Sequence record: OK428535.1
Strand: one strand, 5' to 3'
From: Escherichia phage vB_EcoM_Lh1B
Length of the DNA stretch: 64,000 bases
Below, piece by piece: positions 4,163-49,603 of the stretch. The number at the start of each line of letters is the position of its first letter. Positions within the stretch are counted from its first letter, which is position 1. The position numbers were made by a program, and so were the translations under genes. Under the pieces are notes generated by a model. That model saw nothing but the letters and a program-made list of their open reading frames with translations. It was not told the origin of the DNA and made no database searches.

Positions 4163-5676
4163 TGAAAGACGTCGACGTAGCGGTTATTTATACCGATGGT
4201 AGTCATACTGAGTCCCCGAAAGGTTCGGGGGCTGGTATTCATGGTTATTTATTCAACAACGGAGATTTGGAAGACAGTCAGGCTTATAGCCATCCGGGTG
4301 TTTCANAANGGATTACCACTGTTGGATANAAAAAAGNGCCGCAGGNTGNGAAGTGTCCGGNGTTGCCGGACACCGTTNAATTTNTNGACGCCGTTNTTCC
4401 CGTTCCNAAANAGTTNTNCNCAGATGTGGGNGNGTTAATCNCCTTCATCACGTTNTTTGAGAACGCGCCCTTCCGCGCGAAGAACTATATCATCTACGTG
4501 GATGCCAGTTACGTTGTAAACACTTTTAACGAGTGGATAGACGGCTGGCATAAACGTGGTTGGGTTCGTGCTGACGGTACTCCGCTGGCGAACAAAGAAC
4601 TTATTGTTCGTATCTGGGAAATCAAACAGCAGATGAAAAAAGAAGGACGGGGTGTTAAGGTTATCAAAATCAAAGGACACTCCGGCCACTACGGTAACGA
4701 CCGGGCGGACGAATTGGCTAGAAAAGGTTCAGCCATCACAGCGACCAACGACGGCGTTCCATATCAGCCGTACTGGTCGAAGGATGAGTTGCCTGCATCC
4801 GCGGAACCCGAGCCCATCGCCGCTGGGATGAACCTTGCGGCATATCCGCCTATTTGTACGGTTAAATATTGCTATCCGTTGGTGAACGAGGACCATCCTA
4901 CTGTAAAAGTGAAAGATGAAACTTTCTATTACATGTTTGGTGGCAACCATGCAAAGAACAAGGACGACTTGGTGTTTATTGGGAAAATGATTCCTGATGC
5001 ACACTTTTCCGTAATGTTCACTAAACAACCGTGGGATAACATCTACACGATTGTAAATACCCACGCCGCCCTGGCATGGAAAGATACACCGAAGATGCGG
5101 CAGTATGATCCAATCGGTGTTGTTAACAATGAGTTCGTTAAACGTAAGAAGTTCGTTGATGTGGCAGGTGATGGATTACCGGCAGACAAGATGCATTTCA
5201 GTGGAGAAGATTCCAATGTCTGGTTCTTTGAAGACCTGGCCATCTCCAGAATGCTTCGCCCGCCCTTATTGTCGTACCGTGCGCTGGATATTCGTGATGA
5301 ACTCGCTACAACGTTGCGAGATGTTCTGCATCAGGAAAAGGGTTACGTCTTAAACGACATTACCGACTTGCTATTCGACGACAAAGGTAAACCTGTCAAG
5401 GAATACTACCGTAGCGTCGATAAGTCAATAACGTTAAAGATTGACTTTCCGATGGGTAAACGACCTGTCTCGGTTATTTTGACTCGCGGTATCGATATTC
5501 CATCACGTACGGAAATCAACCGTATTAAAGAACCCGAAGGCCGTTATTACATCGCGGTGTGTCGTCCTGAAAAATACTACATCCGTTACTTCTTAATCTA
5601 TATCGGTAAAGAGTATCATGGGTTGTGGTGTGCGTATTACGCAAACCGTCGCATACTGCGAGAAGAAGAGGTGTAA
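4162..5676 (+). CDS. RNase HI-domain protein with large C-terminal extension
   Basis: 504 aa; N-terminal VAVIYTDGSH...GSGAGIHGYLF and KIKGHSGHYGNDRADELARKG match RNase HI catalytic blocks; about 350 aa of unknown function follow; N calls inside the RNase H domain. Confidence 0.65.
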   Translation: MKDVDVAVIYTDGSHTESPKGSGAGIHGYLFNNGDLEDSQAYSHPGVSXXITTVGXKKXPQXXKCPXLPDTVXFXDAVXPVXKXXXXDVXXLIXFITXFENAPFRAKNYIIYVDASYVVNTFNEWIDGWHKRGWVRADGTPLANKELIVRIWEIKQQMKKEGRGVKVIKIKGHSGHYGNDRADELARKGSAITATNDGVPYQPYWSKDELPASAEPEPIAAGMNLAAYPPICTVKYCYPLVNEDHPTVKVKDETFYYMFGGNHAKNKDDLVFIGKMIPDAHFSVMFTKQPWDNIYTIVNTHAALAWKDTPKMRQYDPIGVVNNEFVKRKKFVDVAGDGLPADKMHFSGEDSNVWFFEDLAISRMLRPPLLSYRALDIRDELATTLRDVLHQEKGYVLNDITDLLFDDKGKPVKEYYRSVDKSITLKIDFPMGKRPVSVILTRGIDIPSRTEINRIKEPEGRYYIAVCRPEKYYIRYFLIYIGKEYHGLWCAYYANRRILREEEV

Positions 5677-6421: not shown

Positions 6422-6439
6422 GAGATAGATATTATCTAC
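6422..6439 (+). promoter_or_regulatory. candidate phage promoter motif (AT-rich TATATTAC-like family)
   Basis: GAGATAGATATTATCTAC about 33 nt upstream of 6472 start; related motifs at 14951..14978 and 46607..46634. Confidence 0.35.
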
Positions 6440-9102: not shown

Positions 9103-9137
9103 ACGGACACTCTTCGGGGTGTCCGTAGTTTTATTTT
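9103..9137 (+). terminator. intrinsic terminator
   Basis: Stem ACGGACAC / GTGTCCGT with TTCG-containing loop, then T-tract. Confidence 0.6.
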
Positions 9138-9149
9138 AATCGACCATTA
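9136..9149 (+). promoter_or_regulatory. conserved upstream element TTAATCGACCATTA
   Basis: Same 14-mer (one variant) found at 46657..46670 and 47536..47549, each 17-19 nt upstream of an ATG with AAGGA(G) RBS between. Confidence 0.3.
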
Positions 9150-9166
9150 ATCTAAAGGAGTATTAA

Positions 9167-10090
9167 ATGGACAGCTTTCTTTTTGATTTGGCAGAATCGG
9201 TAAATGTAGATGTAATCGGTATGCGCGAATCCCCGAGTAATTTCTTAAACGGTCTTACTAAAATCGACGAACGTGTGAAATCCAGAAGTGGAGATCCCGC
9301 CATCATCGAGCAATACGCAATAGCCCATTGTGGCGAGATAGGCCAGCACTTTATACCGATTGAGGCGTTCCTAAAGAACTGCTTCGCCGAAGAATGCACC
9401 GCAGACTTCCTGTCTCTTGCCTACGGCTGGCGATACGGGGGTATCCAAATGGAATTTGATCTTAATATTTTTGAACAAGTTCTACTTGGCGACGTTCTCA
9501 CTGAGATACCACGCAGCTGGATAGACAAGATTCCCGGTTGGGCCGTCTCCTTTTCAGTGTGCTATCGCGCTAAAGATATCGGTATCCAAGAAAAGACTTA
9601 CGTTTTCGGTCGGCGAATGTTTAAAGGGAAAGATTGTTTAACAATGATGATTTTTGGAAAACGTATCGAGGGGGAAACCTTTGAAATCGTGGACGTGGGT
9701 GACGGCTTTGTATCCTTGCGTGTGGCGGAAACTGGTACGCCGGCCAATGAGAAAACGTTACGCATTGTCGGCGCTACCATGTTTACATTCTCACTGATCC
9801 CGCACAACCCTACACCCGTCAAACTGAGACAATTAACTGGAAAGAAACGTATCGCCAATTACCACATTGAACCAAAATCTAAACCGACTGTCCTCTCCAC
9901 CGTAAAAGCACAAAGCGAGTATCTTGAAGAATTTGATACTGATACGGAGAAAAGAACACAAGGTAGCAGATGTGCGCATATGCGTCGTGCACACTGGTGT
10001 ACTTACTGGCTCGGTCCACGTGACGGGAATCGGACAAAGATTTTGAAATGGATACCGCCGACATTTGTCAACGGTTCTAAATGCAAATAA
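9167..10090 (+). CDS. hypothetical protein
   Basis: 307-aa ORF with AAGGAG RBS. Confidence 0.6.
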   Translation: MDSFLFDLAESVNVDVIGMRESPSNFLNGLTKIDERVKSRSGDPAIIEQYAIAHCGEIGQHFIPIEAFLKNCFAEECTADFLSLAYGWRYGGIQMEFDLNIFEQVLLGDVLTEIPRSWIDKIPGWAVSFSVCYRAKDIGIQEKTYVFGRRMFKGKDCLTMMIFGKRIEGETFEIVDVGDGFVSLRVAETGTPANEKTLRIVGATMFTFSLIPHNPTPVKLRQLTGKKRIANYHIEPKSKPTVLSTVKAQSEYLEEFDTDTEKRTQGSRCAHMRRAHWCTYWLGPRDGNRTKILKWIPPTFVNGSKCK

Positions 10091-20103: not shown

Positions 20104-20956
20104 TATCATTCAGCAAGTTCAAGCGGTCGAAGAGTGGTTTCGGCAAGCGGATATTTACCAATACGGGACACGCGAGCAGCAGCTAGCCAAGTTCTATCGC
20201 ACATTAGGCGACGTCGCTGAAGGTGTGCAGAAGATGGACAACTTGAAAGTGGCGGCGGCCATGGGTCGCTCTCTTTGGGCGTTCGTTGGTCTGTTGCACT
20301 TCGGCAAGCACACGAACGTGGGAGATTTCGTTATTCCACTGGATGCAGCTATAAAAGACCGCACCACGGGAAACACCAAAGAGTTCCGTCTTCATAACCT
20401 TTTTGTTGTTGCCACCGAAGTGGTTGGACTCATATTGCAAGATGAGCACGAGCCCCACAGCTACGTTACCGAGCTGCATAGTTTGGCGCGACAATACCGA
20501 ATGTTGGCGCGTATCTGCGGCCTGGAATTCGGCCGTGTAATATACAACGGACATCGTGTGCTAATCAACACGAAAGGTGAAATGAACGGCATCGGGTTGT
20601 TTGTTCCCGCGTCTGATGATTTTACTGGCGATAAATTGCCTGGTTCTAGACAGATGTCTGGGCCAGCCATCTGTCTGATGTTCCAGACTGTCCTGGACAG
20701 TTGTGTCGCTACGCACCTTGCGCCCTATTGCCACCGGCCGTTTAAACGCGACGAGTTGCCGACAATCAATGCTGCACTCGCAACTACGTTAAACGAACTG
20801 CTGGACAAATATGTTCGTGACTCAGTGCGCTGGAATCGTATCCTGTTCGAACGTGTACCTGAAATAACCGCAGCCTACACAGATGGCGGTGTGAATGTGG
20901 TGATGAATGATGATCTACTTTACTTATTTGAAAGCTTAAAGAGGGATAGTATCTAA
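20096..20956 (+). CDS. hypothetical protein, translationally coupled to thymidylate synthase
   Basis: In-frame ATG at 20096 preceded by AGGAGGAGG; its stop overlaps the thyA start (TAATG). Confidence 0.55.
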
Positions 20957-21987
20957 TGAAACAGTATCTTGAAATGATGCAGAATATTCTGGATGAAGGG
21001 CATGTTAAAGGCGATCGTACTGGGACAGGGACGCTCTCCGTCTTTGGTCGCCAAATGCGTTTTGATTTGCGCAAAGGTTTCCCGTTAGTCACGACTAAGA
21101 AACTCCACCTGCGTTCTATTATTCACGAACTGCTGTGGTTCCTTAGTGGCGATACCAACACCAAATATCTGGAAGATAACGGCGTTACCATTTGGCGGGA
21201 GTGGCAAGATGAAAATGGGAACCTTGGCCCCCTGTATGGGGAACAGTGGAGACGTTGGAAAGATGTGAAACTGGTGCCTAAGAAAAATGCAGCTTTACTC
21301 GAGAAACTGCAAGATGCTGGATACGTGGATTATGGCGACGCGGACGACGGTTCACAAATGTTCGATGCGCGTGTACTTCTGAAACTACACGACCAAATCT
21401 CTAAGGTGATTGACCAACTGCGTAACGATCCTGACAGTCGCCGTATTATTGTCAGCGCATGGAATGTGGGTGAGTTGGATCAAATGGCGTTAGCGCCGTG
21501 TCATGCTTTCTTCCAATTTTACACTCGTGAGCTGTCTATCGACGAGCGGGTGAATTGGGCAGAAGATAACGATAACGAACTCTGGTCTGATTATGTCCAC
21601 AGCACGTACGTACCCGCACCTAAGCGATTAGAGTGGTTGGATAAAGCCAACGTGCCAACCCGTATGTTGTCATGTCAGCTGTATGCACGTTCCCAAGACT
21701 TCTTCCTGGGAACACCGTTCAACATCGCGTCTTACGCATTACTCGTACACATGGTAGCTCAGCAAGTTAACATGGTCCCGGGCGATTTCGTTTGGAGTGG
21801 TGGTGACGTACATCTGTACTCCAACCATCTGGAACAGGCTAAATTGCAGCTGACGCGCCAACCTTTACCTTTACCGAAACTGGTCATCAAGCGTAAACCG
21901 GATTCTATCTTCGATTATAAGTTCGAAGATTTCGAAATCCGGGATCACGTATCCCATGAAAAAATATCTGCACCTGTCGCTATCTAA
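20956..21987 (+). CDS. thyA: thymidylate synthase (ThyA-type) with two insertions
   Basis: 343 aa; [15 protein letters not shown]...[48 protein letters not shown], active-site [27 protein letters not shown] and C-terminal KISAPVAI all match bacterial ThyA blocks in order. Confidence 0.95.
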
Positions 21988-35522: not shown

Positions 35523-35698
35523 CGCCGACTTCCTGGCAACATTCAGGGTACTGAGTATCGGGCTTCGTTTTTTCTCGTCTTTGGGACGGGGNGGTTCNCC
35601 NAAANCNTCCCANTCGTCGANTNTATCTAAATCNATATCATCNAAACCNTCTTTNCCTCTTTTTGCCNTAANNTTTNTTCCAATTNAGGAGNTTAAAA

Positions 35699-37312
35699 AT
35701 GACAAAGCTAAAATGGGTTNACTTTTACTTGTTAAACNNCAACAAGTCCCTGGTGTCGCATTTAAAACCAGTTACAACAACAGACACCTTTCAGGGACTG
35801 ACGAAAAACTTTCACCCTGAAGGACTGTATTCAACCGAAATTTTTGGCCTCACAGGGAGCGAAGCACGAGACTCAACGTTCTCGTACATTGATATCAAAC
35901 TGGATATCATTTCGCCGACCGTTTGTTTGGCATTGTTCCAGCTGAAACAGCTGTACGAAGAAATCTGTTCCGGGAAGCGATTCGCTATCTGGAATGAGAA
36001 AGAAAAAGATTTCGAGCCGGCTCTGCCCAGTGATAAAGGTGCAGACACCGGCTTCAACTTCTTCCTACGCTACTACGAACAACTGACACCGGGACGCAAC
36101 GAATCGATGCGTCGCGACGAGACAGTCGATTTCTTCAATAAGTTCCGTCCGGTCAGTCTCAGCCGCTATGTGCTGGTTCTGCCTGCGGGATTACGTGATT
36201 TGGTCATTCGTCAGGATGGCCGCGACCAAGAAGAAGAGATTGGCGGACTCTACCGTCGTCTGATTTCTCTGGCGCGTGCAATCCCCGACCGCAGTACGCG
36301 AACGGAACTGACTGACCCGGTTCGCTGGAAGCTCCAACAAACCTTTAATGATATCTGGATGTACTTCTTCAACATCCAGGATGGTAAAGGTGGTTTTGCA
36401 CGTCGTAAAGTGACGTCACGTAAGTTAATGAACGGTACGCGTAACGTACTGTCTTCATTCTCAACCGGTTCCAAGGTCATGGGTCGCGAAGATGCGATTC
36501 GTCCAACGGATACCCGTATCGGTTTGTACCAAACCCTGAAGGCATTACTGCCTGTGGCTCAATACCACATCCGTGAACGTTACCTCAGTAACATCCGGGC
36601 AGGGGACGGCAACTTATACGGCGTTAACACCAAAACACTCAAGCGTGAGTTCCTGGAAGTCTCCGGGCGGGTGTATGACCTTTTCACTACCGACGATGGC
36701 ATCGAAACACTCATCAACAGAATGGAAGCGCGCGAGCTTCGACATAAACCGCTGATGATTGATCCGGACCATTACGTGGCATTAATCTACCAGGACAAAC
36801 GCAGCTTCAAAATCTTTTACGATATTGAAGACCTGCCGGAAGGACGTGACCGCAAGCTTGTCCGCGGACTGAGCTTAGCAGAACTCCTCTATTTGTCAGG
36901 TTACGATATTTGGAATGACTACTTCTCGTTCATCACGCGTTATCCGGTTACGGGACGCGGTTCGACTTACTCCTCGACCATAAGATTGGAGACCACCACC
37001 TCTTCCCTCTATTTGCATGAACTGGAAGACGATTGGGNCACGTTAAAAGANAAGGGNGCAATTNGNTTCCCTGACCGTACCGTGAAAACNTTTGTGGAAT
37101 CCATGGCACCACATCCANCCCNATTAGGGGGNTTGGGNGGNGACNACGANGGNGACACCGGCNCANCAAANAGCCCGATGTCAACCGAAGCGCTCGNGGA
37201 AAATCGGAAGTGGGTCAGTTCGAAAAACTACTGGTTTGCAACAGACGGCAGTTTCAAAATCAATCCGGTTAACAACGTGATTAAAAGAACGACTGCTGCG
37301 CTGTTGAAATGA
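35699..37312 (+). CDS. RNA polymerase beta-prime-like subunit, N-terminal-half homologue
   Basis: 537 aa; ordered blocks VLVLPAGLRDLV, GGLYRRLI, GKGGFARRKVTSRKLMNGTRNVL, ITRYPVTGRGS, K.AI.FP and GGD-x-[D/E]-GDTG (37142..37156) match beta-prime lid/rudder/DPBB/catalytic-loop blocks; AGGAG RBS. Confidence 0.6.
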   Translation: MTKLKWVXFYLLNXNKSLVSHLKPVTTTDTFQGLTKNFHPEGLYSTEIFGLTGSEARDSTFSYIDIKLDIISPTVCLALFQLKQLYEEICSGKRFAIWNEKEKDFEPALPSDKGADTGFNFFLRYYEQLTPGRNESMRRDETVDFFNKFRPVSLSRYVLVLPAGLRDLVIRQDGRDQEEEIGGLYRRLISLARAIPDRSTRTELTDPVRWKLQQTFNDIWMYFFNIQDGKGGFARRKVTSRKLMNGTRNVLSSFSTGSKVMGREDAIRPTDTRIGLYQTLKALLPVAQYHIRERYLSNIRAGDGNLYGVNTKTLKREFLEVSGRVYDLFTTDDGIETLINRMEARELRHKPLMIDPDHYVALIYQDKRSFKIFYDIEDLPEGRDRKLVRGLSLAELLYLSGYDIWNDYFSFITRYPVTGRGSTYSSTIRLETTTSSLYLHELEDDWXTLKXKXAIXFPDRTVKXFVESMAPHPXXLGXLXXDXXXDTGXXXSPMSTEALXENRKWVSSKNYWFATDGSFKINPVNNVIKRTTAALLK

Positions 37313-44149: not shown

Positions 44150-44953
44150 ATGGAAAACTTGTCACTACGTTATAACTGCGTGGCACTCGCTGGGGTCAAT
44201 AAAGGGGCAACGCTAAAGAAAGATGCGGACGGATATTACTACGTCCTGTTAGGTGCATTGAATATTTTCAACTCTGAGAATATTTACTACGCCTATAACG
44301 AGTCAAAACATGTCTTCGAGCGCTCTAACGTTTTCATGCGTAAAGTTTTGGCGGGGAATCTCTTCGGTGAAGAAGACCATCCGCAATACGAACAAGGCAT
44401 GAGCGAAGCCCAGTGGATCGAACGTAACGAATGGATCGAAACGCGTAACGTGTGTATGCACATTCGCGAAGTAGAAGTGAAGCCGACCGACCAGATGTGT
44501 AACGGTCTGCCGGTGATGGAAATTTGGGGTTGGATTAAACCTAACCGTGAACGTGGTCCGCTTCTGGCGGAAGCACTAGAGAACCCACATCAGAACGTGT
44601 GTTTCTCACTGCGTGCTATCGTTCGTGAAGGTCGTCTGGGTACGACAATCGTACGCCGCATCGATAAACTGGTCACCTTTGACTGGGTTATTGAAGATGG
44701 TCTGCAAATCTGTAACAAATACTCTGCGATTCAACGCGGTAGTAAAGTGGCACAGGAATCCACTCGCACTTACGTCGACCGTCCTATTAGTCGTCAGGTG
44801 CTGGAAGACATCCTGTACAATCCGACAACGACCAGCGCTGTTGCCACTGAGTCCCGTCGTGGCGCTCTCCAGCAACTCGCGCAGGAATACCTGCAGCTGG
44901 CTCCGAAAGTGTCCAATCTGCGGGTAATGGGCATGGGTGTAAGGAGCTGGTAA
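44150..44953 (+). CDS. hypothetical protein
   Basis: 267-aa ORF. Confidence 0.55.
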   Translation: MENLSLRYNCVALAGVNKGATLKKDADGYYYVLLGALNIFNSENIYYAYNESKHVFERSNVFMRKVLAGNLFGEEDHPQYEQGMSEAQWIERNEWIETRNVCMHIREVEVKPTDQMCNGLPVMEIWGWIKPNRERGPLLAEALENPHQNVCFSLRAIVREGRLGTTIVRRIDKLVTFDWVIEDGLQICNKYSAIQRGSKVAQESTRTYVDRPISRQVLEDILYNPTTTSAVATESRRGALQQLAQEYLQLAPKVSNLRVMGMGVRSW

Positions 44954-45994: not shown

Positions 45995-46543
45995 ATGTTT
46001 TATCTGGATAGCGATGGCGTTTTTGCACGCTGGCGTAAATACGTTTTATCCACACATTTTCCCGGAANGACGATTAAAGAGTTTAACGCATTACCTGAAC
46101 TCCGCCGTCGTAGTTTGGTTCGTTCGATGTATCAGAACGATCCTGACTTGTTTTACAAACTCGAACCAATTGAGGGTGTAGAGCGAATCCTGGAAACGGT
46201 AGATAGACTTTGCGACAGTTGGGCAATACTCACCTCTGGGTCAGAAGATCACTACGACCACCAATTGGTTGTGGATTCAAAACAACGGTGGTTCATGAAG
46301 CACTTTGGGGTACCAGCTGACAAAGTCATCGTCACCGAAAGTTCAGGGCAGAAGAAAGCTTACGCCTCGCGAGGTAATTTGCTTGTCGACGATTATGGTC
46401 GTAACTGTCGAGAATGGATTTTGCAAGGTGGTGCGGCGATATGGTCGCGAACTGAAGAACCGAACATTGATGGCATTTGCCTCCAGTGTGAAGCGTTCTA
46501 CAATGACCCGATTACTCACTCGGGGACACTACTGCAAGTCTAA
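45995..46543 (+). CDS. HAD-superfamily nucleotidase-like protein (candidate 5'(3')-deoxyribonucleotidase)
   Basis: N-terminal FYLDSDGV matches HAD motif I (hhhDxDG[TV]); in-frame ATG at 45995 with AAGGA RBS. Confidence 0.45.
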   Translation: MFYLDSDGVFARWRKYVLSTHFPGXTIKEFNALPELRRRSLVRSMYQNDPDLFYKLEPIEGVERILETVDRLCDSWAILTSGSEDHYDHQLVVDSKQRWFMKHFGVPADKVIVTESSGQKKAYASRGNLLVDDYGRNCREWILQGGAAIWSRTEEPNIDGICLQCEAFYNDPITHSGTLLQV

Positions 46544-46552
46544 GCTCTACTA

Positions 46553-46596
46553 GGCTCATCCTATCTTCGGATACGGGTGAGCCTTTTTATTTTATT
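46553..46596 (+). terminator. intrinsic terminator
   Basis: Long hairpin GGCTCATCC-TATC-TTCG-GATA-C-GGGTGAGCC followed by TTTTTATTTTATT. Confidence 0.6.
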
Positions 46597-46606
46597 AATT
46601 GCATTC

Positions 46607-46634
46607 AAAAAGAACTGAGATATATATTACTTAG
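46607..46634 (+). promoter_or_regulatory. candidate phage promoter motif containing TATATTAC
   Basis: AAAAAGAACTGAGATATATATTACTTAGG between a terminator and the next gene. Confidence 0.4.
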
Positions 46635-46656
46635 GTGAGCGTTACACGTTAACGCT

Positions 46657-46670
46657 TTAATCGACTATTA
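46657..46670 (+). promoter_or_regulatory. conserved upstream element TTAATCGACTATTA
   Basis: Variant of the 14-mer at 9136 and 47536; 19 nt upstream of ATG with AAGGAG between. Confidence 0.3.
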
Positions 46671-46689
46671 CCCAGAAGGAGTATTTACA

Positions 46690-47088
46690 ATGACTAACCA
46701 ACTACGCCAAGACCCGTTTGTTGCCATGATGCTTTGTGCTAAAGCCGAGAGCAACGAAGCCGATTTAATTCGTCTGTTGACTGATGACGAATACCTTATC
46801 TCTGAACGTGATAAACGTTTAGAAGAACTCTATAAGCCAGAAACCGGTGAATCGCTCGGTAATCAAAACGCCTGGAAATTTCTTATTCTCGTAGCTGATG
46901 AAAAATGGCGAGCAGAAAATCCCATCGTCTGCGATATTACAGACTTACCGTACAAATACGGCGGACTCATCACTAGCGACCTGCATCTTAAAGCGTTCTT
47001 TGCTGGTGAAGCAATTCAAGAACTGCAAGATGTTCTTGTTACAGCAACAAACACTTTGAGACGTTTACGCGCTGAGCAGCTAATCTGA
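46690..47088 (+). CDS. hypothetical protein
   Basis: 132-aa ORF with AAGGAG RBS. Confidence 0.5.
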   Translation: MTNQLRQDPFVAMMLCAKAESNEADLIRLLTDDEYLISERDKRLEELYKPETGESLGNQNAWKFLILVADEKWRAENPIVCDITDLPYKYGGLITSDLHLKAFFAGEAIQELQDVLVTATNTLRRLRAEQLI

Positions 47089-47142
47089 TCCCTCAAAAAT
47101 AACGAATCGTACAAATCCTTTGACTGTGTAGGAAGGAATAAA

Positions 47143-47532
47143 ATGAAAATCGCAGAGGGGTTAGTAGATGCGTGCAGAGACCCATTCACGCTATGGGTTC
47201 TTTGTGGCTTGCGCCGAGACGATCGTTTCGGTGAGTTTGTTCGAAATCCAGATGCTTTACTAAGCTTCGTAGAAAGCGAGGAGAAGCGTTTAGAGGAGAT
47301 TAAAGAGGAAAGTAGTACCCTTACACCAGATATGGTGGTTTATAGCCGTATGACGTCACACAGGTGGCGTACGACCCATCGGCTGAAGGGAACCTCAATG
47401 AAGGAATTGATTGAAGGGTTATCAAAGGCGCTTTCGTCTGATAACATTATCTGGCCGGTGGTGTATACCAACGAAGACCATTCTGATAACGTGAAGGTTA
47501 CACTGACACGTTGTTATCACACATTCTCGTAG
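47143..47532 (+). CDS. hypothetical protein
   Basis: 129-aa ORF. Confidence 0.5.
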   Translation: MKIAEGLVDACRDPFTLWVLCGLRRDDRFGEFVRNPDALLSFVESEEKRLEEIKEESSTLTPDMVVYSRMTSHRWRTTHRLKGTSMKELIEGLSKALSSDNIIWPVVYTNEDHSDNVKVTLTRCYHTFS

Positions 47533-47535
47533 TAG

Positions 47536-47549
47536 TTAATCGACCATTA
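47536..47549 (+). promoter_or_regulatory. conserved upstream element TTAATCGACCATTA
   Basis: Identical 14-mer to 9136..9149; 17 nt upstream of ATG. Confidence 0.3.
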
Positions 47550-47566
47550 TCGTAAGGAATATTTAC

Positions 47567-48238
47567 ATGCAGGGCACTGAACTCAACAAACTTTGGGAAA
47601 AACTGGTTCGTCAATTCCGCGACTTCTATCGTTATACCGATAGTGCGCATCGCATGGATCACATCAACTCAGTTAAATCAAATGCGATTCGTATCGCGTA
47701 TATGCTTGGGCAAACCGAACACCTGAAGCTGATACTGATTGCGGTGGCAGCTCACGATATCTTCTCTACCAAAGAAGACCGTGCGTCGCACCACATCAAA
47801 GGGTATAGCTGGATACTGGATAACAAGCCAGTGCTCAAACGTAAGTATAAACTTACCGATGATGAATGTTTGACGATTGCCCATGCAGTCTTAGAACACC
47901 GCAGTTCTCACAAAGGGAACTACAACGGGATTGTCTCTGAGATAGTTGCCGCAGCTGACCGTGGCATACCGTCTGTAGATGACGTGAGTAATTACATGCA
48001 CCGTTCTTATCTGTTTGCCCGTGAACAGGGTAAAAGTAAAGGCGATGCAAAATTCCATGCCGTTGGTCACGTCCAACAGAAGTTCGGACGCAACGGTGTT
48101 AGTAATATCCCTAGTTGGTACGGTACGCTCTTCGCAGAGCGCATTCTGGAACGCAGGGATTTCGTGGAGCAGCTAGATATTAGCTATTTCACAGATACCA
48201 TTATCGATGACCTCGAAGCTCGTCTTTCTCATAACTGA
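47567..48238 (+). CDS. HD-domain phosphohydrolase
   Basis: 223 aa; H...HD...H...D pattern (HRMDHINSV, AVAAHDIFS, AHAVLEHR, AAADRG). Confidence 0.5.
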   Translation: MQGTELNKLWEKLVRQFRDFYRYTDSAHRMDHINSVKSNAIRIAYMLGQTEHLKLILIAVAAHDIFSTKEDRASHHIKGYSWILDNKPVLKRKYKLTDDECLTIAHAVLEHRSSHKGNYNGIVSEIVAAADRGIPSVDDVSNYMHRSYLFAREQGKSKGDAKFHAVGHVQQKFGRNGVSNIPSWYGTLFAERILERRDFVEQLDISYFTDTIIDDLEARLSHN

Positions 48239-48258: not shown

Positions 48259-48753
48259 ATGAAAATGGCACAAGTAACATCTATTAAAGAATTGAACAAA
48301 ATGATTGCTGAATTAGAATCTCCGGCAGCAACTCTTTCAGACGATCTTGCGCTCAATGCTGAGCCGCTCGTCGAGCTATATACTTCCACGCTCCCCGTAA
48401 CGAAAGTGGGCGATGTGGACTATCGTTTCACGCTGGAAGACGCGGATGCGCTGCGTCAGCACGACGCAAACTTCACTGAACTGTTTGGTGGTGTTGCCGG
48501 TGGTCTGATTGCCGAACGTGCAAAAGCGGACAGCGATGTCGGTGCACTGGACTTAACGCTCGATATCGGCAACGCAGCATTCTCTACCGTGTTCTCTCGC
48601 CCGGTTACTGAAAACCCAACTCAGAAAGAATGGGCAGCGTCCATCTCTTACGGTTTCGGTTCTCCGAAGNNTAAGGNGTTGGAAGGCAAACNGCGTAAAG
48701 AGTTTGCCAAATCCATGATGGCAACTGATGAAGAAGACGAAGACGACGAATAA
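48259..48753 (+). CDS. hypothetical protein with acidic C-terminus
   Basis: 164-aa ORF with AGGGAG RBS. Confidence 0.5.
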   Translation: MKMAQVTSIKELNKMIAELESPAATLSDDLALNAEPLVELYTSTLPVTKVGDVDYRFTLEDADALRQHDANFTELFGGVAGGLIAERAKADSDVGALDLTLDIGNAAFSTVFSRPVTENPTQKEWAASISYGFGSPKXKXLEGKXRKEFAKSMMATDEEDEDDE

Positions 48754-48956
48754 TGATTCCGTCCAGCCCAAAGGAACTCGCTGAGCTACTCGGGGCTAAA
48801 GTGGAGTGCCATCCTAATGTGAATCCGGCTACTGGGTTACGTTGGGATGGTACCATTGCGCCACACGAGGAAATCGGTCTCACCGTCACCTTCCCTAAAC
48901 CCATGCCGAAGCCGCTGCAGTTAGAAGGGCTTGCTTCGCTATACGGTCGGAAGTAG
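48753..48956 (+). CDS. hypothetical small protein
   Basis: 67-aa ORF overlapping upstream stop. Confidence 0.4.
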   Translation: MIPSSPKELAELLGAKVECHPNVNPATGLRWDGTIAPHEEIGLTVTFPKPMPKPLQLEGLASLYGRK

Positions 48957-48964
48957 TAAACAAT

Positions 48965-48998
48965 GGGGTGGTCTTATGACTGCCCTATTTTTTTTTTG
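48965..48998 (+). terminator. probable intrinsic terminator
   Basis: Imperfect hairpin with two wobble pairs followed by a 10-nt T-run. Confidence 0.45.
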
Positions 48999-49012
48999 AT
49001 TTTGGAGCTACA

Positions 49013-49555: not shown

Positions 49556-49603
49556 AACGTACCTCTCTCCAAATGGAGAGAGGTAACGCTTGTTTTTTTT
49601 TTG
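49556..49603. terminator. bidirectional intrinsic terminator
   Basis: Perfect 10-bp stem ACCTCTCTCC / GGAGAGAGGT with AAAT loop, A-run before and 11-nt T-run after. Confidence 0.65.

Follow-up and report, generated by a model that had tools for sequence, protein, structure and literature searches.

A HAD-type and an HD-type phosphohydrolase gene on either side of a putative transcription boundary in Escherichia phage vB_EcoM_Lh1B

Genes and transcription signals at the locus

We analyzed a 64,000-nucleotide stretch of Escherichia phage vB_EcoM_Lh1B (sequence record OK428535.1; hereafter, the window), focusing on positions 45995 to 48238, in which an earlier note, prepared from the sequence alone, had described a nucleotide-salvage-like cluster composed of a HAD nucleotidase-like gene and an HD phosphohydrolase gene. 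The observation itself was confirmed: the interval opens with the ATG of the HAD gene (translation MFYLDSDGV...) and closes exactly at the end of the HD open reading frame (ORF), stop codon included. The 3.3 kb around the two genes share 96-97% DNA identity with Salmonella jumbo phage SPN3US and ~30 close Seoulvirus relatives, an apparent identity that is lowered by the 247 N bases scattered over the window. Gene order was obtained by mapping the window onto SPN3US records, and we refer to the genes by the names of their SPN3US homologues, gp248 (HAD) and gp251 (HD). Both are already annotated in GenBank (gp251 as 'putative HD domain protein', and the gp248 homologue as 'NT5C' in one record, SPFM19); they are members of well-known superfamilies and ordinary in kind. 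The features of the region are as follows:

45995..46543, + strand: gp248 homologue, HAD protein, 182 amino acids (aa)
46552..46594, + strand: intrinsic terminator ending the HAD-containing unit, with a 14-bp stem and a UUCG loop, then UUUUUAUUUU
46615..46640, + strand: early-type phage promoter motif GAGATATATATTACTTAGGTGAGC, core at ~46620
46658..46689, + strand: leader element TAATCGACTATTACC then AAGGAG, ahead of gp249
46690..47088, + strand: gp249 homologue, 132 aa, no assigned function (PHROG 27024)
47143..47532, + strand: gp250 homologue, 129 aa, no assigned function (PHROG 23206)
47537..47566, + strand: the leader element again, as TAATCGACCATTATC then AAGGAA, immediately 5' of the HD gene
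47567..48238, + strand: gp251 homologue, HD protein, 223 aa
48259-48753, + strand: gp252 homologue (PHROG 7952, SPN3US annotation)
48753-48956, + strand: gp253 homologue (ORF, SPN3US annotation), last gene of the presumed operon
48962..48999, + strand: intrinsic terminator closing the gp249-gp253 unit (-24 kcal/mol, z = -4.2), then a run of 10 U

The hairpin that follows the HAD gene (46552-46594) has a folding energy of -21 kcal/mol (z = -5.4), and none of 200 shuffled sequences folded as well. The promoter motif next to it has the core ATA[TGA]AT[AG]TTA[TC], which occurs 19 times in SPN3US versus 1.9 times expected, with all copies on the + strand and 30-60 nucleotides (nt) ahead of genes; the window contains three core copies (i.e., at 6425, 46620, and 61528, all +). 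In its fuller form, the motif reads (A/T-rich)-AGATA[T/G]AT[A/G]TTAYCT-N2-GTGA and is found as two sub-types, GATATATATTACYTAGGTGAG and GATAGATATTATCT. The extended pattern ATATATTACYTAGGTGA gave a single match in the window, and the looser core was then used on the whole SPN3US genome. A full-text literature search for the core TATATTAC returned irrelevant papers only, and a scan for sigma-70 promoters found sites no commoner than in shuffled sequence. In jumbo phages that encode RNA polymerases, an AT-rich conserved motif stands ahead of presumed early operons and is read by the virion RNA polymerase (PMC7598289). Because of this statement, we interpret the motif as probably being the early (virion-RNA-polymerase) promoter consensus of this phage group; the copy at 46620 is presumed to drive a unit consisting of gp249, gp250, gp251 (HD), gp252, and gp253.

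The HD gene and gp249 have a leader in common, AATCGACYATTA-N-AAGGAG, i.e., TAATCGACYATTA followed by a Shine-Dalgarno sequence. Its consensus is TAATCGAC[CT]ATTA-N5-7-AAGGAG-N6-8-ATG, with copies in the window at 9137-9170, 46658-46692, and 47537-47569, and at least seven copies in SPN3US, all of them directly 5' of start codons (at least five in addition to those of gp249 and the HD gene). This leader often follows the promoter sub-type GATATATATTAC, yet the copy that precedes the HD gene is operon-internal; the element might serve as a translational operator or mark a site of RNA processing. The region upstream of the HAD gene carries neither the leader element nor an early-type promoter. 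Thus, the earlier statement that each gene stands behind conserved upstream elements applies to the HD gene, which shares them with gp249, but not to the HAD gene.

HAD and HD genes lie near each other (83-1027 bp) in at least 10 phages from several genera, and they are direct neighbors in related Erwinia phages. More specifically, the spacing is 83-141 bp in Derbicus, Phobos, ChrisDB, and Wellington, ~320 bp in Huxley, Machina, and Caitlin, ~580 bp in Asesino and phiEaH2, and 1027 bp in SPN3US. Only in the SPN3US group do gp249 and gp250 lie between them, as no gene intervenes in Phobos or ChrisDB; the short HAD-HD intergenic space of the latter two phages also contains a hairpin with a T-run and a promoter-like motif. 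The HAD and HD genes are therefore conserved neighbors divided by a transcription boundary that is itself conserved in the window, Phobos, and ChrisDB. Since a terminator and an early-type promoter separate them, the two genes do not form one co-regulated cluster, and a single co-transcribed HAD-HD operon was rejected on the same two features. The description of a nucleotide cluster consequently survives as far as the recurrent proximity of the genes is concerned, but not in the face of the intervening transcription signals and the two unrelated small genes that are present here.

gp248, a predicted 5'(3')-deoxyribonucleotidase homologue

gp248 was matched by the Pfam model NT5C (PF06941) with 34.0 bits (E = 3.3e-8), above the gathering cut-off of 24.8, as was its homologue in Vibrio phage pVa-21 (26.3), whereas the Phobos homologue remained below it (21.3). 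PHROG 2643, '5'-3' deoxyribonucleotidase', likewise matched gp248 (8e-19), as did PHROG 420; NCBIfam gave no match for gp248 or its neighbors. In a phmmer search against PDB, the only meaningful matches of gp248 were the structures 2jao and 2i7d of cdN/mdN, the cytosolic and mitochondrial 5'(3')-deoxyribonucleotidases of mammals (E ~0.008), and a HAD family profile (A2 profile) searched against the same database performed more poorly than the single gp248 sequence.

All four catalytic motifs of HAD phosphatases can be recognized in gp248. Motif I reads L-D5-S-D7-G-V (LDSDG), in which D5 is the predicted nucleophile and D7 the predicted acid/base; motif II comprises T80/S81, motif III K120, and motif IV D132-D133, and these align with the matching cdN/mdN segments. 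Across 15 gp248 homologues (down to 52% identity), D5, D7, T80/S81, K120, and D132/D133 do not vary. An N at position 46068 leaves codon 25 of the HAD ORF ambiguous, where SPN3US has Met. In the AlphaFold2 (AF2) model (predicted local distance difference test [pLDDT], 94.9), gp248 adopts a HAD Rossmann-like core (strands 2-4, 76-81, 111-114, 129-132, and 147-150) with a four-helix cap inserted at residues 13-55, between motifs I and II. When this model was used as a Foldseek query, the best match was 3bwv, a deoxyribonucleotidase-like protein (4.7e-5), and all top matches were HAD enzymes.

Judged by sequence and model, gp248 is thus a HAD-superfamily, NT5C-like 5'(3')-deoxyribonucleotidase homologue with an intact predicted active site, in agreement with the HAD nucleotidase-like call of the earlier note. 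It resembles cdN/mdN (2jao, 2i7d) and the bacterial 3bwv in the HAD core, the four-helix cap, and all four catalytic motifs. It differs from them in that sequence identity is only ~16-22% and in that gp248 is phage-encoded, the likeness being one of sequence and model. By analogy, gp248 would be a Mg2+-dependent HAD phosphatase in which Asp5 attacks the phosphate, leading to an aspartyl-phosphate intermediate, and Asp7 serves as acid/base; Thr80/Ser81 and Lys120 would bind the phosphate group, and metal coordination would fall to Asp132/Asp133. Deoxynucleoside monophosphates (dNMPs) would be converted into deoxynucleosides and inorganic phosphate.

The names given to HAD homologues in GenBank also suggest another function: in Wellington, Kwan, pVa-21, and OLIVR1 they are called, e.g., 'putative DNA repair exonuclease', and RNA repair in jumbo phages is known to draw on enzymes of both superfamilies, HAD and HD (PMC7824862). 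On this account, both proteins would act on nucleic-acid ends in DNA or RNA repair, the HAD protein as a polynucleotide 3'-phosphatase and the HD protein as a nuclease or end-healing phosphatase. However, gp248 scores above the NT5C threshold and has a deoxyribonucleotidase-like protein as its best fold match; moreover, it neither carries a fused kinase or ligase domain nor has such neighbors. For the HD protein, the nucleases YhaM and Cas3 did appear as weak fold or family matches, but they ranked far below the structures 2pq7, YedJ, and YpgQ described in the next section. Given this ranking and the NT5C membership, we consider a role at nucleic-acid ends very improbable.

gp251, a predicted HD phosphohydrolase of the YedJ/2pq7/YpgQ type

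Searches with gp251 alone yielded no Pfam match at E <= 1 (including HD, PF01966), and phmmer against PDB was empty as well. Since these single-sequence searches were empty, family profiles were needed. A profile of 24 homologues was searched against 1.84 billion proteins, revealing a large family (1090 cluster representatives at E <= 0.001). In a sample of 84 homologues (25-55% identity to the window protein), residues H28, H32, H63, D64, H75, H111, and D131 were invariant, and R72, R112, R146, H168, and K172 were nearly invariant. Pfam HD was matched by 35 of these 84 homologues (E <= 0.01), with scores of 27.2 bits for CF8 and 36.7 bits for OBP relative to a cut-off of 22. The only Pfam models matched among the 84 relatives were HD, HD-CE, Ppx-GppA_III, and four stray families. 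In NCBIfam, the E. coli YedJ model (PRK10119/NF007515) was the best family for 48 of the 84, none of which came near the cut-off of 286 bits. gp251 itself scored 23.9 bits (E = 2.5e-5) against this equivalog model and missed the cut-off; we therefore rejected gp251 as a YedJ orthologue and regard it as a distant relative.

The family profile found 2pq7 (7e-13), YedJ (4e-11), 3djb, 3b57, and YpgQ (4e-4) in PDB. Consistently, the AF2 model of gp251 (pLDDT, 91.7) shows an all-alpha HD fold, for which the top Foldseek matches were 2pq7, 2pjq, YpgQ, SE1688, BH2835, and YedJ. The predicted metal ligands of gp251 are H32, H63-D64, and D131, while H75 and H111 complete an H...HD...H...H...D signature of the dinuclear type; H28, R146, F150, H168, and K172 are predicted to bind the nucleotide. 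YpgQ has been characterized as a mononuclear Mn2+ (d)NTP (i.e., [deoxy]nucleoside triphosphate) pyrophosphohydrolase whose metal is bound by H29, H58, D59, and D124 and whose substrate site contains H25, R136, F140, and H158, and the extended H...HD...H...H...D motif is considered diagnostic of a dinuclear HD site (PMC8177086). In a hidden Markov model (HMM) alignment, R146 and F150 of gp251 fall on an Arg and a Phe of YpgQ; judging by how far these two lie from the last Asp, we take them for R136 and F140. H28 of gp251 stands four residues ahead of H32, the same as H25 ahead of H29 in YpgQ, whereas H164/H168 were placed as candidate equivalents of YpgQ H158 by spacing only. The two His residues at the H75 and H111 positions are both present in 2pq7, and at least the second is present in YedJ, but neither is found in YpgQ (HMM alignment). 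In addition, R146-F150 and H168-K172 repeat R140-F144 and H174-K178 of PenF (PMC11592144), by spacing only and with no PenF alignment.

These results place gp251, on sequence and model grounds, as an HD-superfamily metal-dependent phosphohydrolase of the YedJ/2pq7/YpgQ type, which are its best sequence-profile and fold matches. Their common properties are an all-alpha HD fold of ~200-220 aa, the metal and substrate residues H-x3-H...HD...D, and an Arg followed by an aromatic residue four positions on, after the last Asp; the C-terminal 60 residues of gp251 are family-specific. The profile searches proposed in the earlier note led from gp248 to NT5C and from the gp251 family to 2pq7, YedJ, and YpgQ, and the catalytic residues are present in the alignments of both proteins; the HD phosphohydrolase call is borne out by the invariant His and Asp residues of the 84 homologues and by these profile matches.

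That the substrate of gp251 is a nucleotide appears well supported by these comparisons, but the choice of the cleaved bond is not settled by clade membership. Besides the (d)NTP pyrophosphohydrolases YpgQ and YedJ, the clade is reported to include PenF, an arabinonucleoside 5'-monophosphatase (PMC11592144), and AtCN-PDE1, a plant cyclic GMP (cGMP) phosphodiesterase (PMC6692503). Compared without direct alignment, PenF and AtCN-PDE1 have the same scaffold as gp251, a scaffold that also supports monoesterase and cyclic-diesterase chemistry.

One alternative that arises here has gp251 acting early in counter-defence, as a phosphodiesterase that breaks down immune signals of the host (cyclic mono-, di-, or oligonucleotides, or alarmones), with gp248 being unrelated or degrading the linear products. 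Such a role was proposed by Iyer et al. 2021 for QDB70412.1 of Aeromonas phage CF8, termed an 'HD-GYP' counter-nucleotide enzyme (PMC7824862); in a pairwise comparison, this homologue was 33% identical to gp251 (E = 1e-21) and belongs to the same family. The proposal is also consistent with the dinuclear H...HD...H...H...D signature, which is typical of HD phosphodiesterases (PMC8177086), with the cGMP phosphodiesterase AtCN-PDE1 being a member of the YpgQ/YedJ clade (PMC6692503), with the resemblance of the gp251 fold to class-I cyclic-nucleotide phosphodiesterases, and with the location of gp251 in a presumed early operon. However, PADLOC gave no match at E <= 1 for gp248, gp249, gp250, or gp251, and the fusion partners and neighbors of distant homologues are MazG, ThyX, and Tmk rather than defence or anti-defence genes. 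Moreover, the HD-GYP-specific model, which we take to be HD_5 (PF13487), is absent among the Pfam models matched by the 84 family members, and no GYP motif is visible. Overall, counter-defence appears an unlikely role for gp251.

HD-GYP membership of gp251 was rejected, given that neither the HHExxDGxGYP motif nor a match to the HD-GYP-specific model was found; moreover, the solved HD-GYP structures are more distant from gp251 than YedJ or YpgQ. A bolder version would make gp251 and its family of ~1000 clusters, mainly from jumbo phages, new HD-fold early counter-defence phosphodiesterases directed against CBASS, Pycsar, or type III CRISPR signals, with the HAD neighbor clearing the linear products, or, in milder form, a non-canonical dUTPase analogue of HD fold that feeds ThyA/ThyX in chimalliviruses without Dut. 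We assign this proposal a low likelihood.

Gene neighborhoods and a possible role in nucleotide metabolism

The genomic associations of distant gp251 homologues bear on its physiological context. One such homologue (P0114) is a MazG-HD fusion, and a second (P0214) is an uninterrupted 780-aa ORF in which the HD domain is followed by an intein-containing ThyX; the latter ORF is present on three contigs, two of which also encode chimallin while the third is short (i.e., on at least two chimallivirus contigs). A third homologue (P0081) is encoded 1.2 kb from a thymidylate kinase (Tmk) gene. The MazG and ThyX fusions, together with the proximity to Tmk, point to deoxynucleoside triphosphate (dNTP) or thymidylate metabolism. 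The neighborhoods in CF8, OBP, and DT01 and at three metagenomic loci (L020-L022) were phage-like and uninformative, with nearly all genes unannotated or hypothetical. At a metagenomic chimallivirus locus (L008, 6001-8343; also L009 and L010), the ThyX part of the HD-ThyX ORF is broken by a Hint/LAGLIDADG intein, and a chimallin gene lies 4 kb upstream; in L008, an IS605 OrfB/Cas12f-like gene is located 700 bp downstream of the ORF.

The SPN3US annotation includes ThyA, DHFR, and Tmk, and a copy of the early-type promoter motif stands shortly upstream of each of the latter two genes. The ThyA gene mentioned in the earlier note is indeed present in the window and is given here as context only:

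20956..21987, + strand: ThyA thymidylate synthase (SPN3US gp229; Pfam Thymidylat_synt, 2.3e-110), 24 kb away from the HAD and HD genes

The SPN3US annotation lists neither a dUTPase nor a dCMP deaminase, ribonucleotide reductase, or MazG, and tblastn of SPN3US with E. coli Dut and a MazG domain returned nothing significant, in what was a weak test that used a single Dut query. A literature search on SPN3US gp248 and gp251 found no functional data.

Based on the folds, catalytic-residue conservation, family relationships, gene order, and terminator and promoter motifs, we infer substrates, expression timing, and physiological role as follows. With somewhat better than even confidence, we propose that gp248 and gp251, transcribed separately, serve a jumbo phage of the SPN3US type as accessory enzymes that dephosphorylate free (deoxy)nucleotides. 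gp251 would most likely act as a (d)NTP pyrophosphohydrolase, converting (d)NTPs into (d)NMPs and pyrophosphate as do characterized bacterial members of the clade, and would probably be made early, from a promoter of the virion-RNA-polymerase type. Along with ThyA, DHFR, and Tmk, the two enzymes may reshape the dNTP pool, e.g., by conversion of dUTP to dUMP or by removal of unwanted dNTPs or dNMPs. A more specific version, suggested by the HD-ThyX fusion, is that gp251 would make dUMP from dUTP and so replace a missing Dut. Remodelling of the dNTP pool, as put forward in the earlier note, therefore remains the best-supported reading in view of the MazG/ThyX fusions, the Tmk proximity, and the presence of ThyA, DHFR, and Tmk, whereas the notion of a co-regulated salvage cluster does not hold; 'salvage' is also the wrong word, since both enzymes would remove phosphates.

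The proposed logic is similar to that of known phage dNTP-pool editors, including the T4 dCTPase/dUTPase gp56, phage MazG, the HD-domain dATPase DatZ of S-2L, and T5 Dmp. When compared by logic alone, the parallel lies in the use of a phage phosphohydrolase to eliminate or convert certain (d)NTPs or dNMPs; the difference is that this phage shows no sign of modified DNA.

Several observations weigh against free-nucleotide dephosphorylation by the pair. First, Vibrio phage pVa-21 has the HAD gene in the same slot without the HD gene, while CF8, OBP, and DT01 carry the HD gene without an adjacent HAD gene, and the terminator and promoter between the two genes mean that joint action is not required. 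Second, gp251 has the dinuclear signature, in contrast to YpgQ, which in the HMM alignment lacks His at the H75 and H111 positions. Third, the presence of the monophosphatase PenF and of AtCN-PDE1 in the YedJ/YpgQ clade means that the fold does not tell which reaction is catalyzed. Fourth, the tblastn search on which the absence of dUTPase partly rests, made with one Dut sequence, was insensitive. Finally, two dephosphorylating enzymes would work against a phage that itself requires dNTPs, unless each is restricted to particular substrates.

Dephosphorylation might instead serve disposal. Phage T5 Dmp is the phage model for dephosphorylating dNMPs from degraded host DNA, and the pair could dispose of host-DNA breakdown products in the same manner, so that dephosphorylated dNMPs leave the pool. 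The NT5C membership and intact active site of gp248 would fit this scheme, as would a neighboring HD enzyme with conserved predicted nucleotide-binding residues. On the other hand, we found no evidence here of early host DNA degradation by the phage, the HAD gene lies outside the presumed early unit, and reuse of nucleotides, rather than their disposal, would be expected of a phage whose genome measures 240 kb. We accordingly view disposal as quite improbable and retain dephosphorylation of free (deoxy)nucleotides by accessory enzymes as the preferred interpretation.

Relative to the existing annotation, the analysis newly places the gp251 family in the YedJ/2pq7/YpgQ branch rather than among HD-GYP proteins, links it by fusion to MazG and ThyX, and locates an operon boundary that parts the HAD gene from the HD gene. 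The family placement and the fusions narrow the substrates worth testing to dUTP or other dNTPs versus cyclic nucleotides, and because an amber-mutant genetic system exists for SPN3US, tests of gp251 function are feasible. Should gp251 turn out to be a Dut substitute or a degrader of immune signals, students of jumbo-phage biology would find this moderately interesting; the practical value of the work is modest, and as matters stand these are ordinary, previously annotated accessory genes of nucleotide metabolism.

Further features of the surrounding region are as follows:

Upstream of the protease gene: gp240 and gp241, virion RNA polymerase beta subunits, then gp242 to gp244 (SPN3US mapping)
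44150-44953: gp245, S80 prohead protease (Pfam, 1e-84), then gp246 and gp247
Downstream of gp253: gp254, then tail tube and sheath genes on the opposite strand (SPN3US mapping)

The HAD and HD genes are thus located downstream of the RNA polymerase block, as stated earlier, but head genes, including that of the S80 prohead protease (44150-44953), lie in between. Concerning the small genes of the presumed early unit, gp249 had no match in Pfam, NCBIfam, or PADLOC. gp249 and gp250 show weak similarity to each other (BLASTP, E = 0.008 over 42 aa), with a common N-terminal segment, DPF..LC...KRLEE, suggesting that they may be tandem paralogues.

The N bases form clusters at, e.g., 2722-2798, 4306-4455, 35592-35738, 37038-37197, and 48671-48693, and many ORFs contain X residues as a result; these isolated N bases look like polymorphic positions that were masked in an assembly of mixed or consensus type, and several SPFM phage records show the same pattern. 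Outside the window, SPN3US 140024-142139 holds two adjacent annotated radical-SAM-domain genes that may bear on nucleotide or DNA modification. Finally, a perfect 11-bp palindromic hairpin, TACCTCTCTCCAAATGGAGAGAGGTA, is present at 49560-49585 between the converging gp254 and tail-tube genes, where it is probably a bidirectional terminator.

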